Positions 5,752 through 34,663 of a DNA stretch of 64,000 nucleotides are shown in pieces. The position numbers were made by a program, and so were the translations under genes. This DNA is from Escherichia coli (GTDB lineage: Bacteria > Pseudomonadota > Gammaproteobacteria > Enterobacterales > Enterobacteriaceae). Under the pieces are notes generated by a model that did no database searches, had not been told where the DNA came from, and worked only from the letters and a program-made list of their open reading frames with translations. The stretch lies in assembly GCF_003334315.1 (NCBI RefSeq), contig NZ_QOWR01000016.1; one strand, written 5' to 3'. Within the stretch, counting starts at the first letter, position 1, and each line of letters starts with the position of its first letter.

Positions 5752-6738
5752 TTACACTACGCCTGCACGCAGTAAATCATGCATATGTAACACACCGAGT
5801 AAATGGTCGCCATCGGCAACCATCACGGAGGTGATATGGCGGGACTGCATTAAGTTCAGTGCCTCAACGGCCAGAATGCCAGGGCGCACACGTATTCCCC
5901 CCGGCGTCATCACATCGGCAATACTTAACTGACGAACATCCACGCCCATATCGAAGACACGGCGTAAATCACCGTCGGTAAAGATGCCTTCAATCATCAT
6001 ATTGTCATCGCAAATGACAGTCATACCAAGATTTTTGCGGGTAACTTCCAGCAACGCGTCACGCAGACTGGCCGTTTTCTTAACATGCGGGATCTCATCG
6101 CCCGTATGCATAATATCGTTTACGCGCAGCAGAAGTTTACGACCCAGTGCGCCGCCTGGGTGTGAGAGCGCAAAATCTTCAGCAGTAAAGCCGCGTGCTT
6201 TTAACAGCGCGACAGCGAGGGCATCGCCCATAACCAGCGTGGCGGTGGTGCTGCTGGTCGGTGCCAGCCCTAACGGACAGGCTTCTTTCGCTACTTTAAC
6301 ACACAGATGCACATCTGCGGCGCGCGCCATGCTGCTCTCCGGGCGACCGGTGATGCAGATTAACGGTACGTGAAGACGCTTAAGCACTGGAATTAAGGCC
6401 GTGATTTCGCTGGATTCACCAGAGTTAGAGATAGCAATCACCACATCCTGTGGGGTAACCATGCCTAAATCACCATGCGCGGCTTCACCAGGATGGACGA
6501 AAAATGAAGGTGTACCGGTGCTGGCAAACGTTGCCGCCATTTTTCGCCCAATATGCCCCGATTTTCCCATCCCCATGACGACAACTTTCCCTTTACACCA
6601 GAACATCTTTTCACAGGCAAGCGTGAAATTCTGATTGATGTATTGATCAAGCTCCGCCAGGCATTCACGTTCAATCGCCAGGACTTCTTTACCTGCTTGC
6701 TGAAAGTCAAAACCCGGTTGTAACTCTACGTGCGACAT
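5752..6738 (-). CDS. kdsD: D-arabinose 5-phosphate isomerase (SIS + CBS domains)
   Basis: Track ORF trimmed to Met giving 328 aa MSHVELQPGFDFQQAGKEVLAIERECLAEL; matches KdsD. Confidence 0.95.
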   Translation of the reverse strand: MSHVELQPGFDFQQAGKEVLAIERECLAELDQYINQNFTLACEKMFWCKGKVVVMGMGKSGHIGRKMAATFASTGTPSFFVHPGEAAHGDLGMVTPQDVVIAISNSGESSEITALIPVLKRLHVPLICITGRPESSMARAADVHLCVKVAKEACPLGLAPTSSTTATLVMGDALAVALLKARGFTAEDFALSHPGGALGRKLLLRVNDIMHTGDEIPHVKKTASLRDALLEVTRKNLGMTVICDDNMMIEGIFTDGDLRRVFDMGVDVRQLSIADVMTPGGIRVRPGILAVEALNLMQSRHITSVMVADGDHLLGVLHMHDLLRAGVV

Positions 6739-6751
6739 AATGCGTTTCCAG

Positions 6752-7729
6752 TTATTCAACGAGTATTGGCGATAACCAGTACAACATCGCCAGCCATACG
6801 ATAAATCCGCCAGTTAATAATACCCCTACACCACGGCCCGGTTGCGGGGAGCGCCGCCAGCACAGCAACGCAAAAATAATGCTCACCAGCAACATCACGC
6901 TGTAGTCACGACTGTACGCCAGTGGATCAATCTCTCCTGGCGTTATCAGCGCGGGTAAACCCAACACGATGACAATATTAAAAATGTTTGCGCCAATGAT
7001 ATTTCCGACAGCAATGTCGTTTTCACCTTTGCGAACCCCCGCTATTGCGGTTGCCAGTTCCGGCAGGCTGGTTCCGATAGCAATTGCCGTCAGACCCATC
7101 GTCAACTCGCTGATGGCAAAGTAATTCGCCAGCACCGTGGCGTTATCAACCACCATCCGCGTGGCCACTGGCATGATGATAAGCGCAATGCCGAGCCATA
7201 AAAACGTGACGGGCAATCCGCCGTCACGCGGCAGCTCTGCAAGCTGCTCTCTGGTCAGGCTGTCAGTCCCCTGACGTTCAGCCTGACGTGCAAGTTTAAC
7301 AATGAACAGCAGCCATAGCACAGCCAGAAAGAGGAGAAAGATACCATCGCTGCGACTAAGTTGTCCGTCATAGAGTACGGAACCGGCCACCACGCTGACC
7401 AACAACATTAAGGGTAATTCACGGCGTAGAACATCAGAATGGACGGTAAAAGGACGAACCAGCGCAGCCAGACCGAGGATCAGCAATATATTGATAATGT
7501 TTGAGCCGAGGGCTGTACCAACGGCTAAATCGCGTTGTTCGTGCAGAGACGCGGCAAGCGAGACGATGACTTCTGGTAACGATGTACCAATACTGACCAC
7601 CGTCATGCCGATGATCAGCGGCGGGATGCCAAAGGTTCGGCAAAGAATAGACGCGGCAAAAACCAGGCGGTCGGCACTGTAAACGACCAAAAGTAAACCA
7701 ACAATTAACAGTGCCGTAGCTAAAAGCAT
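6752..7729 (-). CDS. yrbG: Ca2+/Na+ antiporter family inner membrane protein
   Basis: 325-aa polytopic membrane ORF, duplicated GTSLPE motifs typical of CaCA family; matches YrbG. Confidence 0.9.
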   Translation of the reverse strand: MLLATALLIVGLLLVVYSADRLVFAASILCRTFGIPPLIIGMTVVSIGTSLPEVIVSLAASLHEQRDLAVGTALGSNIINILLILGLAALVRPFTVHSDVLRRELPLMLLVSVVAGSVLYDGQLSRSDGIFLLFLAVLWLLFIVKLARQAERQGTDSLTREQLAELPRDGGLPVTFLWLGIALIIMPVATRMVVDNATVLANYFAISELTMGLTAIAIGTSLPELATAIAGVRKGENDIAVGNIIGANIFNIVIVLGLPALITPGEIDPLAYSRDYSVMLLVSIIFALLCWRRSPQPGRGVGVLLTGGFIVWLAMLYWLSPILVE

Positions 7730-7938
7730 CTAACGTCCTTTCTTCAGGTATACTCGCCGGTCCGCTGAAGATTTTCAGAAAGCCGTAACGGATGCTTAAT
7801 TTTGACTTTATGCGGCTAAAAAGTAAAACAAATGCCAGCTTTCGCTAACCACGGCGGGTAATATTCTGTAAATATGTTGGGTTCAAGGTTAAATTGAGCG
7901 CCATGCTTAGAAAATCAACGCAAGACGAAGGGTGAATT

Positions 7939-25846: not shown

Positions 25847-25933
25847 GCCGAGGTGGTGGAATTGGTAGACACGCTACCTTGAGGTGGTAGTGCCCAATAG
25901 GGCTTACGGGTTCAAGTCCCGTCCTCGGTACCA
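25847..25933 (+). tRNA. leuU: tRNA-Leu
   Basis: GCCGAGGTGGTGGAATTGGTAGACACGCTACCTTGAGGTGGTAGTGCCCAATAGGGCTTACGGGTTCAAGTCCCGTCCTCGGTACCA: long-variable-arm class II tRNA with CCA end, immediately 3' of secG as for E. coli leuU. Confidence 0.9.
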
Positions 25934-25941
25934 AATTCCAG

Positions 25942-25975
25942 AAAAGAGACGCTGAAAAGCGTCTTTTTTCGTTTT
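25942..25975 (+). terminator. Intrinsic terminator after leuU tRNA
   Basis: AAAGAGACGCTGAAAAGCGTCTTTTTTCGTTTT. Confidence 0.75.
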
Positions 25976-26391
25976 GGTCCTGGTCTGAGGAATGGTTGTC
26001 AGGTATCTGTATCTCGTCCAGTTGCTTTACTCGTAGCTGGTACCTTGAAACGATGGTGCCGGTACGCCTTAGTTATAAACTTTTCCCTTCTGCTGACATA
26101 ATTGGCACTTTATTGTGTCAACTCCAGTTCCGGTACGAATACGGATATGTTTACTTCTCGATAAACCATCCTGCTCCTGTCAGTATAACTACTGATGGCT
26201 ACGTTCTGCGTAATGTTTAGAGACGCATTGATAATGTTATTTAATTACTGAGAACGCAATGGCCGCATCATTTAAAAAGAAAAAACTAACAGTGTTTCGG
26301 TCTGATATGGATCAGAGTTGAAAAACATGTCTGATATAAAATTAAACATTGTTGATAATTGTTTATATTGGTTGTGAACTTGGATTTCTGG

Positions 26392-28017
26392 ATGACAGTA
26401 TTCAACAAATTTGCTAGAACTTTTAAATCTCATTGGTTGTTGTATCTTTGTGTTATTGTTTTTGGTATTACGAACTTAGTCGCTTCTTCCGGAGCGCATA
26501 TGGTTCAGCGCTTGCTGTTCTTCGTTCTGACCATCCTGGTTGTAAAACGTATATCATCCCTTCCGCTTCGCCTGCTTGTTGCCGCACCATTTGTGTTACT
26601 GACTGCGGCAGACATGAGTATTAGCCTCTATTCATGGTGTACCTTTGGTACAACTTTCAATGATGGATTTGCGATTAGTGTGCTCCAGAGTGATCCGGAT
26701 GAAGTTGTCAAAATGCTGGGGATGTATATCCCTTATCTATGTGCCTTTGCTTTTTTATCCCTTCTTTTTTTGGCAGTAATAATAAAATATGATGTTTCCT
26801 TGCCGACAAAAAAAGTGACAGGAATATTATTGCTGATTGTCATTTCGGGCAGTTTATTTTCCGCTTGTCAATTTGCTTATAAAGATGCAAAAAATAAAAA
26901 AGCGTTCAGTCCATATATACTAGCGTCGCGATTTGCTACCTATACGCCGTTTTTCAATCTCAACTATTTTGCTTTAGCAGCGAAAGAGCATCAAAGATTA
27001 CTCTCAATTGCAAACACGGTGCCGTATTTTCAATTATCAGTCAGGGATACAGGTATTGATACCTACGTGTTGATTGTGGGGGAGTCTGTACGTGTCGACA
27101 ATATGTCTTTGTATGGATATACACGCTCTACGACACCGCAAGTTGAAGCACAAAGAAAACAGATCAAACTGTTTAATCAAGCAATAAGCGGCGCACCTTA
27201 CACTGCGCTGTCGGTTCCCCTTTCTTTAACTGCTGATTCTGTTTTGAGTCATGACATTCATAATTACCCCGACAACATTATTAATATGGCTAATCAAGCA
27301 GGATTTCAGACTTTCTGGCTAAGCTCGCAATCCGCTTTTCGGCAGAATGGTACAGCAGTTACCAGTATCGCCATGCGCGCCATGGAAACAGTTTATGTCA
27401 GAGGATTTGATGAATTGTTGTTGCCGCATTTATCGCAAGCATTACAGCAAAATACGCAGCAAAAGAAACTGATTGTTCTTCATTTAAATGGAAGCCATGA
27501 ACCGGCTTGTAGCGCCTATCCGCAATCCAGCGCCGTGTTTCAACCGCAGGACGATCAGGATGCCTGCTATGACAACTCCATTCATTACACAGATAGTTTG
27601 CTAGGTCAGGTTTTTGAATTATTAAAAGATCGCCGCGCCTCGGTCATGTATTTTGCCGACCACGGCCTGGAACGTGACCCTACGAAGAAGAACGTCTATT
27701 TTCATGGAGGCAGGGAGGCTAGCCAGCAGGCATATCATGTCCCGATGTTTATCTGGTATAGCCCCGTTCTTGGGGATGGCGTGGATCGCACAACGGAAAA
27801 CAACATCTTTTCGACAGCTTACAATAATTACCTTATTAATGCGTGGATGGGGGTAACAAAGCCGGAACAGCCGCAAACGCTTGAGGAAGTGATTGCACAC
27901 TATAAAGGAGACTCACGGGTTGTGGATGCAAACCATGATGTTTTCGATTATGTGATGCTCAGAAAGGAGTTTACAGAGGATAAGCAAGGTAACCCCACCC
28001 CTGAAGGGCAGGGTTGA
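26392..28017 (+). CDS. yhbX: Inner membrane sulfatase/phosphoethanolamine-transferase-family protein (OpgE/EptA-like)
   Basis: 541-aa product from ATG MTVFNKFARTFKSHWLL with N-terminal TM helices and C-terminal sulfatase-like domain; matches YhbX; track ORF begins 11 codons upstream at a non-ATG codon. Confidence 0.85.
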   Translation: MTVFNKFARTFKSHWLLYLCVIVFGITNLVASSGAHMVQRLLFFVLTILVVKRISSLPLRLLVAAPFVLLTAADMSISLYSWCTFGTTFNDGFAISVLQSDPDEVVKMLGMYIPYLCAFAFLSLLFLAVIIKYDVSLPTKKVTGILLLIVISGSLFSACQFAYKDAKNKKAFSPYILASRFATYTPFFNLNYFALAAKEHQRLLSIANTVPYFQLSVRDTGIDTYVLIVGESVRVDNMSLYGYTRSTTPQVEAQRKQIKLFNQAISGAPYTALSVPLSLTADSVLSHDIHNYPDNIINMANQAGFQTFWLSSQSAFRQNGTAVTSIAMRAMETVYVRGFDELLLPHLSQALQQNTQQKKLIVLHLNGSHEPACSAYPQSSAVFQPQDDQDACYDNSIHYTDSLLGQVFELLKDRRASVMYFADHGLERDPTKKNVYFHGGREASQQAYHVPMFIWYSPVLGDGVDRTTENNIFSTAYNNYLINAWMGVTKPEQPQTLEEVIAHYKGDSRVVDANHDVFDYVMLRKEFTEDKQGNPTPEGQG

Positions 28018-28024
28018 TGTCGAA

Positions 28025-29383
<1,359 letters not shown>

Positions 29384-29419
29384 TTAATTAACTGATGATG
29401 AGCCTGGATTTCCGCTCTC

Positions 29420-29455
29420 ACTGAATTTTTATGCAAAATAAATGAGTTTTCATTT
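29420..29455 (-). promoter_or_regulatory. Tandem ARG boxes (ArgR operator) in argG promoter
   Basis: On the argG strand the region reads AAATGAAAACTCATTTAT TTTGCATAAAAATTCAGT, two adjacent 18-bp sites resembling TNTGAATWWWWATTCANT, 50-90 bp upstream of the argG start. Confidence 0.55.
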
Positions 29456-29593
29456 AATCATCTTTTATCGGAGACAGGAAGAGTTTAGTGTGTTTTTTGT
29501 AAAATAATGCGCTTAAGGGAGAGCAGGAGAAGGCAAAAGTATTCAACAAATGAAAGTGAACTGGATATTCATTCACATGATTAGCAATAAACG

Positions 29594-29623
29594 TTGACAA
29601 AATGTGGCGTGGATCACTATAAT
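29594..29623 (+). promoter_or_regulatory. Near-consensus sigma-70 promoter upstream of metY (distal)
   Basis: TTGACA -18 nt- TATAAT read directly from sequence about 95 bp upstream of the tRNA. Confidence 0.5.
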
Positions 29624-29671
29624 GCCTGCAGATTTTACGTCCCGTCTCGGTACACCAAATCCCAGCAGTAT

Positions 29672-29700
29672 TTGCATTTTTTACCCAAAACGAGTAGAAT
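29672..29700 (+). promoter_or_regulatory. sigma-70 promoter of metY (proximal)
   Basis: TTGCAT -17 nt- TAGAAT ending about 15 nt upstream of the mature tRNA 5' end. Confidence 0.6.
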
Positions 29701-29715
29701 TTGCCACGTTTCAGG

Positions 29716-29792
<77 letters not shown>

Positions 29793-29913
29793 CTTTCCCT
29801 TAGAGTCCTTTTTCAAATATACTGTGAAGACTTCGGCCTTCGTAGTGGGATTTGAAAAAATCCTTCTGGAAAGTGCTCCAGACCGCAGTTGCGGTTATAG
29901 GGTTCAGTTATAT

Positions 29914-29940
29914 AAAGCCCCGATTTATCGGGGTTTTTTG
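29914..29940 (+). terminator. Intrinsic terminator/attenuator between metY and rimP
   Basis: AAAGCCCCGATTTATCGGGGTTTTTTG hairpin plus T-tract. Confidence 0.7.
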
Positions 29941-29998
29941 TTATCTGACTACAGAATAACTGGGCTTTAGGCCCTTTTTTTATGTCTTGGGGGTGGGC

Positions 29999-30478: not shown

Positions 30479-31966
<1,488 letters not shown>

Positions 31967-31990: not shown

Positions 31991-34663
31991 ATGACAGATG
32001 TAACGATTAAAACGCTGGCCGCAGAGCGACAGACCTCCGTGGAACGCCTGGTACAGCAATTTGCTGATGCAGGTATCCGGAAGTCTGCTGACGACTCTGT
32101 GTCTGCACAAGAGAAACAGACTTTGATTGACCACCTGAATCAGAAAAATTCAGGCCCGGACAAATTGACGCTGCAACGTAAAACACGCAGCACCCTTAAC
32201 ATTCCTGGTACCGGTGGAAAAAGCAAATCGGTACAAATCGAAGTCCGCAAGAAACGCACCTTTGTGAAACGCGATCCGCAAGAGGCTGAACGCCTTGCAG
32301 CGGAAGAGCAAGCGCAGCGTGAAGCGGAAGAGCAAGCCCGTCGTGAGGCAGAAGAATCGGCTAAACGCGAGGCGCAACAAAAAGCTGAACGTGAGGCCGC
32401 AGAACAAGCTAAGCGTGAAGCTGCTGAACAAGCGAAACGTGAAGCTGCGGAAAAAGACAAAGTGAGCAATCAACAAGACGATATGACTAAAAACGCCCAG
32501 GCTGAAAAAGCCCGCCGTGAGCAGGAAGCTGCAGAGCTCAAGCGTAAAGCTGAAGAAGAAGCGCGTCGTAAACTCGAAGAAGAAGCACGTCGCGTTGCTG
32601 AAGAAGCACGTCGTATGGCGGAAGAAAACAAATGGACTGATAACGCGGAACCGACTGAAGATTCCAGCGATTATCACGTCACTACTTCTCAACATGCTCG
32701 CCAGGCAGAAGACGAAAGCGATCGTGAAGTCGAAGGCGGCCGTGGCCGTGGTCGTAACGCGAAAGCAGCGCGTCCGAAGAAAGGCAACAAACACGCTGAA
32801 TCAAAAGCTGATCGTGAAGAAGCACGCGCAGCAGTACGTGGCGGTAAAGGCGGAAAACGTAAAGGTTCTTCGCTGCAGCAAGGCTTCCAGAAGCCTGCTC
32901 AGGCCGTTAACCGTGACGTTGTGATCGGCGAAACTATCACCGTTGGCGAACTGGCGAACAAGATGGCGGTTAAAGGCTCTCAGGTCATCAAAGCGATGAT
33001 GAAACTGGGCGCAATGGCAACCATCAACCAGGTTATCGATCAGGAAACCGCACAGCTGGTTGCTGAAGAGATGGGCCATAAAGTTATCCTGCGTCGTGAA
33101 AACGAGCTGGAAGAGGCGGTAATGAGCGACCGTGACACGGGTGCTGCGGCTGAACCGCGCGCGCCGGTTGTGACCATCATGGGTCACGTTGACCACGGTA
33201 AAACCTCTCTGCTGGACTACATTCGTTCAACGAAAGTGGCCTCTGGCGAAGCGGGCGGCATTACCCAGCACATTGGTGCATACCACGTTGAAACTGAAAA
33301 CGGCATGATCACCTTCCTGGACACCCCGGGGCACGCCGCGTTTACTTCAATGCGTGCTCGTGGTGCGCAGGCAACGGACATCGTAGTCCTGGTTGTTGCT
33401 GCCGACGACGGTGTGATGCCGCAGACCATCGAAGCAATCCAGCACGCGAAAGCGGCGCAGGTACCGGTGGTGGTTGCAGTGAACAAGATCGATAAACCAG
33501 AAGCTGATCCGGATCGCGTTAAGAACGAACTCTCCCAGTACGGCATCCTGCCGGAAGAGTGGGGCGGTGAAAGCCAGTTCGTACACGTATCTGCGAAAGC
33601 GGGTACCGGTATCGATGAACTGCTGGACGCTATCCTGCTGCAGGCGGAAGTTCTGGAGCTGAAAGCGGTACGTAAAGGTATGGCGAGCGGTGCGGTTATC
33701 GAATCCTTCCTCGATAAAGGTCGTGGTCCGGTTGCTACCGTTCTGGTACGTGAAGGTACTCTGCACAAGGGCGATATCGTTCTGTGTGGCTTCGAATACG
33801 GTCGTGTTCGTGCGATGCGTAACGAACTGGGTCAGGAAGTGCTGGAAGCGGGTCCGTCCATTCCGGTGGAAATCCTCGGCCTGTCCGGCGTACCGGCTGC
33901 GGGTGATGAAGTTACCGTTGTACGTGACGAGAAGAAAGCGCGTGAAGTTGCACTCTATCGTCAGGGTAAATTCCGCGAAGTTAAACTGGCGCGTCAGCAG
34001 AAATCTAAACTCGAGAACATGTTCGCCAACATGACCGAAGGCGAAGTTCACGAAGTGAATATCGTCCTGAAGGCAGACGTACAGGGTTCTGTCGAAGCGA
34101 TCTCCGACTCCTTGCTGAAACTGTCTACTGACGAAGTTAAAGTGAAGATCATCGGTTCTGGCGTAGGTGGTATCACCGAAACCGACGCCACCCTGGCTGC
34201 GGCGTCCAACGCCATCCTGGTTGGCTTTAACGTACGTGCTGATGCCTCTGCACGTAAAGTGATTGAAGCGGAAAGCCTGGATCTGCGTTACTACTCCGTC
34301 ATCTATAACCTGATTGACGAAGTGAAAGCGGCGATGAGCGGTATGCTGTCTCCGGAACTGAAACAGCAGATTATCGGTCTGGCGGAAGTTCGTGACGTGT
34401 TCAAATCGCCGAAATTTGGTGCCATCGCAGGCTGTATGGTTACCGAAGGTGTGGTTAAACGTCACAACCCGATCCGCGTTCTGCGTGACAACGTGGTTAT
34501 CTACGAAGGCGAGCTGGAGTCCCTGCGCCGCTTCAAAGATGACGTTAACGAAGTCCGTAACGGTATGGAATGTGGTATCGGCGTTAAGAACTACAACGAC
34601 GTCCGCACTGGCGATGTGATCGAAGTATTCGAAATCATCGAGATCCAACGTACCATTGCTTAA
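31991..34663 (+). CDS. infB: Translation initiation factor IF-2
   Basis: 890-aa [32 protein letters not shown] with repetitive charged N-terminal region and GTPase G-domain ([12 protein letters not shown]); matches IF2. Confidence 0.97.

Follow-up and report, generated by a model that had tools for sequence, protein, structure and literature searches.

The stacked promoters upstream of the Escherichia coli initiator tRNA gene metY are the known P-1 and P0, and P-1 appears to mark one border of an old insertion of argG between leuU and metY

The stretch of Escherichia coli DNA that was analysed (64,000 nt, referred to as the window) contains argG and, divergent from it, the metY-rimP-nusA-infB operon, in which the rimP ORF lies between metY and nusA (ORF list, K-12 annotation). 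The features of the region are collected in Table 1. Throughout its 347 nt the spacer between argG and metY is identical to that of K-12 MG1655. Among 638 aligned bases the sole difference from K-12 MG1655 is at position 29762 in metY, which is G here and A in that strain; with G at this position the initiator tRNA is, in that stretch, the same as that of metZ, unlike the K-12-specific minor species. When the 432 bases around the site were compared with the complete E. coli genomes, all 5,426 gave a match, and the query coverage was at least 80% in 5,423 of them. The Rfam rimP leader RF01770, a known cis-regulatory family, was matched with 102 bits at 29881-29981, where it covers the terminator-like hairpins between metY and rimP.

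Table 1. Coordinates of the genes, promoter elements, candidate regulatory sites and repeat copies of the leuU-infB region in the window
Feature	Position	Strand	Basis or remark
leuU, tRNA-Leu(GAG)	25847-25933	+	last 18 nt and 8 nt of flank (25916-25941) form the left repeat copy
predicted intrinsic terminator, ending the secG-leuU transcript	25941-25970	+	13-bp stem, then T run; abuts the left repeat copy
block between the repeat copies	25942-29638		3.7 kb; terminator, yhbX, argG, argG regulatory region, P-1
yhbX	26359-28017	+	ORF list; inside the block
argG	28025-29368	-	ORF list, K-12 annotation; divergent from metY-rimP-nusA-infB
ARG-box-like pair, TGAATTTTTATGCA and TGAGTTTTCATTTA	29422-29456		21 bp apart, over the predicted argG promoter; 1 and 3 mismatches
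single ARG-box-like site, TGGATATTCATTCA	29562-29575		about -68 to -55 from the P-1 start; 2 mismatches
P-1 -35 hexamer, TTGACA	29594-29599	+	sequence reading, consensus scan; agrees with the published P-1 core
CRP-like site, TGTGGCGTGGATCACT	29603-29618		within the P-1 spacer; 8/10 consensus positions
P-1 -10 hexamer, TATAAT	29618-29623	+	sequence reading, consensus scan
P-1 discriminator, GCCTGC (5/6 G/C), and +1 A at 29630	29624-29630	+	sequence reading
leuU 3'-end remnant (GTCCCGTC-TCGGTACACCA) and 8 nt of 3' flank	29639-29665	+	right repeat copy, bounding the yhbX-argG block
P0 -35 hexamer, TTGCAT	29672-29677	+	sequence reading; core printed in PMC6511841
P0 -10 hexamer, TAGAAT	29695-29700	+	sequence reading, consensus scan; core printed in PMC6511841
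metY, initiator tRNA-fMet, anticodon CAT	29716-29792	+	ARAGORN; Rfam tRNA, 61 bits; MG1655 alignment
P2 promoter core, 3' of metY	29792-29833	+	identical to P2 printed in PMC6511841
nusA	30479-31966	+	ORF list, K-12 annotation
infB	31991-34663	+	ORF list, K-12 annotation

An earlier note on this DNA had described two stacked promoters upstream of metY, the distal one an almost perfect match to the sigma-70 consensus, both facing the operon. When the letters were read again, both hexamer pairs were found at the same positions, on the + strand and upstream of the tRNA-Met(CAT) gene, and the layout of the operon that they face is that of the K-12 annotation. The hexamers of the distal element (P-1, 29594-29623) are separated by 18 nt and those of the proximal element (P0, 29672-29700) by 17 nt, and in both they resemble TTGACA and TATAAT at the 16-18 nt spacing of sigma-70 promoters. 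In the consensus scan the P-1 hexamers matched in 12 of 12 positions. A perfect TTGACA-N16-18-TATAAT occurs once in the window, counting both strands, against 0.01 expected from shuffled sequences, which places the P-1 element far beyond chance. P0 was picked up by the scan in a shifted register (TTTGCA-18-TAGAAT, 9/12), the register read originally, TTGCAT-17-TAGAAT, scoring 8/12. By itself P0 is not above chance, since three promoter-like sites were found against 2.7 expected in a 2.5-kb region, and the case for its being real rests on the literature and on conservation. P0 is situated about 78 bp downstream of P-1, and the leader that a transcript from the P-1 start at A29630 carries ahead of the tRNA (to 29716) measures 86 nt, in agreement with the roughly 90 extra nucleotides anticipated. 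The P-1 discriminator has the high G+C content characteristic of stringently controlled promoters; that of P0, TTGCCAC (4/7 G/C), is less clear than that of P-1.

Both elements are promoters of the metY-rimP-nusA-infB operon that had been mapped before, namely P-1 and P0, and the promoter finding itself is already known. P0 was reportedly described by Ishii, Kuroki and Imamoto in 1984 (PNAS 81:409) and P-1, reportedly, by Granston, Thompson and Friedman in 1990 (J Bacteriol 172:2336). Brandi et al. (2019, PMC6511841), who credit Ishii 1984, Regnier 1989 and Granston 1990 for the operon promoters, list P-1 and P0 5' of metY and P2 3' of metY, and print the P-1 core as ACGTTGACAAAATGTGGCATGGATCACTATAATGCCTGCAGATT and the P0 core as TATTTGCATCTTTTACCCAAAACGAGTAGAATTTGCCACGTT. 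The window agrees with the printed cores in 43 of 44 nt (P-1), in 41 of 42 nt (P0) and exactly (P2); P-1 and P0 are each off by one spacer base, both being natural alleles. The published promoters and those in the window are the same objects, the latter without difference from MG1655. As they were mapped 35-40 years ago and were re-examined in 2019, their rediscovery adds nothing on E. coli. In genomic SELEX, TTGACA-18-TATAAT was reported as a constitutive RpoD promoter for metY.

That both promoters function is evident from the published experiments. By primer extension, 5' ends were found at P-1, P0 and P2 in strains K-12 and MRE600 as well as in an RNase III mutant (PMC6511841), hence at both upstream promoters and not at a single start. 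The P-1 and P0 signals were very weak at 37 °C; the P-1 starts became more abundant upon cold shock, and also when RNase III was mutated (PMC6511841). Fusions to cat demonstrated that both upstream promoters are active, isolated P-1 being the strongest and increasing about 4-fold after cold shock (PMC6511841). The output of P-1 was much lower with P0 and P2 present, a drop that the authors put down to P-1 and P0 being close together and competing with each other, and the total expression from the native three-promoter arrangement was low (PMC6511841). The latter value and the faint signals at 37 °C could also be understood if P0 alone mattered in vivo and the distal hexamers were silent or occluded, for instance by permanent binding of CRP or ArgR, or were a side effect of the divergent argG control region. 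Such an explanation is contradicted by the detection of P-1 starts, by their rise under the two conditions mentioned and by the strength of the isolated P-1 fusion. According to the same authors the P-1 core 'matches completely the consensus', its +1 adenine follows six bases, five of them G/C, as in stringently controlled promoters, and a 'stringent box' is present; they describe ppGpp control of the metY operon as 'not directly demonstrated' (PMC6511841).

The conservation of the elements was followed within E. coli and among related species. The 30-nt P-1 core occurs as two alleles, with G (3,953 genomes) or A (1,465 genomes) midway through the spacer; together they account for 5,418 of the 5,426 complete E. 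coli genomes, and the 12/12 match is thus fixed in this species. The polymorphic base is 29609, inside the N6 centre of the CRP-like site, and it has been speculated that this base alters the cold response of metY between strains (PMC6511841). For the wider comparison a RimP scan yielded 80 loci from different Enterobacterales species, and 77 species were compared. Fifty-eight argG-type loci were picked solely by a remnant of leuU located between P-1 and P0 (see below), that is, independently of the -35 sequence. All 58 have TTGACA-18-TAnnnT at -121 or -122 from metY, the -10 being TATACT in 32, TATAAT in 15, TACAAT in six, TAAACT in four and TACACT in one. In the alignment of the 58 species the information content was 0.20 bits per column for the 40 nt preceding P-1, 0.60 for the spacer, 1.70 for the -10 and about 1.5 for the leader; the value for the P-1 -35 is circular in that alignment, because TTGACA had been selected by a regular expression, and the count among the remnant-selected loci is the independent test. 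Retention of the hexamers and of the 18-nt spacing in 58 of 58 species, with the surrounding DNA randomised, is also hard to reconcile with a silent P-1. The P0 pattern TTGCxx-17-TAxxxT was present in all 58 argG-type sequences and in all 13 distinct sequences of the species in which intact leuU is adjacent to metY, with TAAAAT or TAGAAT as the -10 in the former and TAGTAT or TAATAT in the latter.

It has been published that metY expression is lowered by cAMP-CRP and by ArgR, and that one CRP site is common to metY and argG. Neither this regulation nor the origin of the leader entered the earlier interpretation, which missed both. In the window, sites of the type TGTGA-N6-TCACA numbered 21 against 28 expected, so that the single match in the P-1 spacer is not above chance. 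Bound to this candidate site, a CRP dimer would occupy the interval separating the -35 from the -10, in keeping with the repression that has been reported. The overlap with the P-1 spacer could also be taken to favour occlusion of P-1. In the cross-species alignment the site is kept at 8-9 of 10 positions only in Escherichia and Kluyvera, and permanent occlusion cannot therefore explain the conservation of P-1. With this, the alternative of a silent distal promoter is largely refuted, and we regard it as extremely improbable. The two members of the ARG-box-like pair begin at 29422 and 29443, and 21 bp is the usual spacing of paired ARG boxes. Matches to TGAATwwwwATTCA in the window (31 against 23.5 expected) were not clearly above chance, and neither was the single match at 29562-29575 by itself. 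As consensus scans alone did not exceed chance, the CRP and ArgR candidates were read only jointly with the literature. Fis had also been suggested as a regulator to look for; the strict Fis motif had no match in the metY spacer, but this motif has no discriminating power here.

A comparison with metZWV, the other locus for initiator tRNA in E. coli, was likewise proposed in the earlier note. The metZWV promoter reads TTGCAT-16-TATAGT; it shares its -35 with P0, has a near-consensus -10 and, like P-1, a GC-rich discriminator (GCGCATCC), and it has been published that it is lowered by ppGpp. Unlike metY, metZWV has a single apparent promoter, whose spacer is 16 nt long and whose -35 is closely preceded by an A-tract, and it has neither a 12/12 element nor a divergent gene with a shared CRP site. 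Stacked sigma-70 promoters before a stable-RNA gene are known from rrn P1 and P2, where the upstream promoter is strong and regulated and has a GC-rich discriminator. The region upstream of metY is similar in layout and in the discriminator of its upstream promoter. It differs in that P-1 has perfect hexamers and an 18-nt spacer, as opposed to the 16-nt spacer and imperfect -35 generally known for rrn P1, in that P-1 overlaps a candidate CRP site, and in the lack of a match to the strict (here uninformative) Fis motif.

The explanation that in our view best accommodates these data, and which as a whole we hold to be highly probable, is that the elements are the sigma-70 promoters P-1 and P0, that P-1 is held in check, and that the site has a history of argG insertion. 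The P0 transcript would start a few bases upstream of the tRNA and that of P-1 at A29630, giving a precursor with the 86-nt leader; processing enzymes would free the tRNA from both. Owing to its perfect hexamers P-1 should be intrinsically very strong, and three restraints can be envisaged. The first is ppGpp, of which P-1 is a likely target because of its GC-rich discriminator. The second would be CRP, acting at the candidate site that sequence reading places within the spacer, and the third competition or interference with P0 downstream.

The history of the site emerged from a comparison of its surroundings among species. In 15 species that have no argG at metY, the distance from the end of an intact upstream tRNA-Leu(GAG) gene to metY is 59 nt, with P0 alone in between. 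The genera with leuU adjacent to metY include Pantoea, Mixta, Cedecea, Buttiauxella, Atlantibacter, Franconibacter and Siccibacter; in Cedecea the order is secG, leuU, metY, rimP, nusA (rimP by homology), and a terminator-like site between leuU and metY was not found there. In the 58 argG-type species the leader opens, 9 nt past the P-1 start, with GTCCCGTCCTCGGTACCA, which is the last 18 nt of leuU. The 18-mer of leuU was found without mismatch in about 33 other species, where it is as far from metY as the genuine 3' end of leuU is. The spacer that follows the remnant, AAATCCCAGCA...TTGCAT, is common to the two arrangements, and the 18 nt of leuU have the same offset from metY in both (-76 against -77).

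The E. coli remnant was missed by an ungapped search with the leuU 18-mer, as it carries two indels, and was detected by gapped alignment. The copies at 25916-25941 and 29639-29665 are identical in 24 of 28 columns. Their alignment score of 33, compared with 13.0 ± 1.9 for shuffled sequences, was reached by none of 2,000 shuffles, and the pair is the best non-self match in the window. P-1 ends 9-15 nt ahead of the right copy. In Salmonella (leuU, 6266-6352; argG, 6549-7892) argG is the sole gene of the block; the top direct repeat (TTCAAGTCCCGTCCTCGGTACCAA and TTTACGTCCCGTCCTCGGTACCAA) matches in 22 of 24 positions, with 1,826 bp between the copies, and the sequence of the E. coli left-edge terminator also follows leuU. 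In Klebsiella the block contains, besides argG, a 133-aa ORF, a YfaZ-family gene and a cNMP-binding/HTH gene between leuU and argG. No integrase or other mobility gene was found in the block of Salmonella, E. coli or Klebsiella. The G+C content of argG (0.51-0.54) is like that of the flanks, so that its base composition does not deviate from them, and only yhbX is low (0.375-0.44).

The interval from leuU to the argG 3' end varies between genera (window 25942-28017; locus L083, 6354-6548; locus L084, 4306-6584), which in Salmonella measures only about 200 bp and has REP-like palindromes. An exact 14-nt direct repeat (AGTATTCAACAAAT) was noticed at 26397-26410, near the start of yhbX, and at 29538-29551, at a distance of about 45 nt on the upstream side of the P-1 -35; chance could account for it.

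From these features we infer a single old insertion of the argG block just 3' of leuU, duplicating the 3' end of the tRNA gene. The block resembles the genomic islands that occupy tRNA 3' ends and have an att duplication on their flanks: it is bounded by a direct repeat extending from the T-loop to just past CCA, an intact tRNA gene stands on one side and a 3' fragment of it on the other, related species lack the block at this site, and additional cargo varies beside the tRNA. It is unlike such islands in having no mobility genes, in carrying the housekeeping gene argG as core cargo with host-like G+C, and in being fixed across a large clade.

The direction of the change was judged from a neighbour-joining tree of rimP-nusA, in which the leuU-adjacent state fills the outgroup and a basal grade, and the species with argG and P-1 form one large clade. 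This tree is crude and has no bootstrap values, and the argG-type genera Entomohabitans and Shimwellia fall among the leuU-adjacent genera in it. These two genera would suit the opposite order of events, in which the arrangement with argG in between came first, recombination between the repeats removed the block from the 15 leuU-adjacent species, and P-1 is no later than P0; recombination between direct repeats of 24-31 nt would indeed restore a clean leuU-metY junction. Yet the outgroups Pantoea and Mixta and all sampled basal lineages are leuU-adjacent, and the argG-type state is essentially one clade. An adjacency of secG, tRNA-Leu, tRNA-fMet and rimP, which we take to be present also in Pseudomonas, counts against loss as well. 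Moreover, argG is needed for arginine synthesis and its repeated loss would demand a second copy elsewhere, and the repeat itself would still require an event of insertion or duplication. We therefore consider repeated loss improbable.

On the insertion model, P0 would be the ancestral promoter of the short leuU-metY spacer, and P-1 would either have arrived with the inserted argG block or have evolved at its right edge. In species without the insertion secG, leuU and metY would be co-transcribed, which we infer solely from the absence of a terminator. The terminator at the left edge of the block would have severed metY from the secG-leuU read-through, and P-1 at the right edge would now provide upstream transcription in its place. 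The specific proposal that P-1 is the outward-facing promoter of an ancient argG cassette of at least about 1.8 kb, that it replaced the read-through and that the leuU fragment was co-opted, is one that we favour slightly. The insertion would also have placed the expression of the initiator tRNA and of NusA and IF2 beside the CRP/ArgR control region of argG. The coupling of initiator tRNA to arginine and cAMP signals is thereby suggested to be a historical by-product of the landing site of argG and to be limited to part of the Enterobacteriaceae.

The one new point of this work would be the position of P-1, on the border of an old insertion of argG that separated leuU from metY. The comparative origin, well supported at the sequence level, is a modest and testable addition; it would account for the stacking of two promoters in front of this operon and for the source of the 86-nt leader, and would provide a clear example in which a promoter of perfect consensus coincides exactly with the boundary of an insertion. 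Literature searches on leuU with metY or with argG returned no paper describing the insertion, which may be noted elsewhere.

A different source of P-1 was also considered. A MAFFT alignment hinted that the P-1 core might be a decayed copy of the tRNA-Leu body; among 57 species the mean z was 0.27, the median 0, and z exceeded 2 in four, and the idea was rejected. In a Salmonella locus (L048) the sequence GGAATAAGGTTGACA, at the P-1 -35 and immediately before it, is similar to GGAATTGGTAGACA of the tRNA-Leu D-arm, and in Pluralibacter (L041) GAATGAGTTGACACGCT at the same place matches GAATTGGTAGACACGCT in 14 of 17 positions. Descent of the P-1 -35 from the TAGACA of a duplicated tRNA, at which these two loci hint, was likewise discarded, the signal being absent in most species (same mean z).

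The leuU fragment, together with the old spacer, is far better conserved than would be expected of a fossil, the DNA 40 nt away being randomised. The 27-nt tRNA-Leu fragment is almost invariant in at least 58 species, and this suggests co-option, either as DNA upstream of P0 or as a processing signal. Relative to the P0 start the conserved stretch spans about -37 to -68, a position from which it may act as upstream DNA for P0; alternatively, it may guide how the P-1 transcript is processed. Such a fragment of a dead tRNA, short and strongly constrained, would be directly accessible to mutagenesis.

The conservation of the leader, at about 1.5 bits per column far above that of the adjacent DNA, could also mean that it is a functional structured RNA, such as a tRNA-like processing signal or a regulatory leader, and not a fossil. 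A small invariant hairpin, GAUUU/AAAUC, is predicted in it; the pairs of this 5' hairpin never vary and are hence uninformative on structure either way. The fold of the leader was no more stable than that of shuffled sequences (z = -1.06, 32 of 200 shuffles folding as well), the covariation term was only -0.64 kcal/mol, and no Rfam match was obtained in 29630-29715 at E ≤ 1. Moreover, P0 and its upstream region are in the same stretch and could explain the constraint at the DNA level. For want of stability, covariation or an Rfam match, RNA structure in the P-1 leader was rejected, and a functional RNA in place of a fossil seems doubtful to us.

A few loci deviate from the two arrangements described. 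In Trabulsiella guamensis (L017) tRNA-Met is absent upstream of rimP. Three loci (L021, L026 and L071) show a third arrangement, which has no leuU remnant and in which another distal promoter-like element, TTGCAA-18-TATAAT, is present; L071 carries two tandem tRNA-fMet genes.
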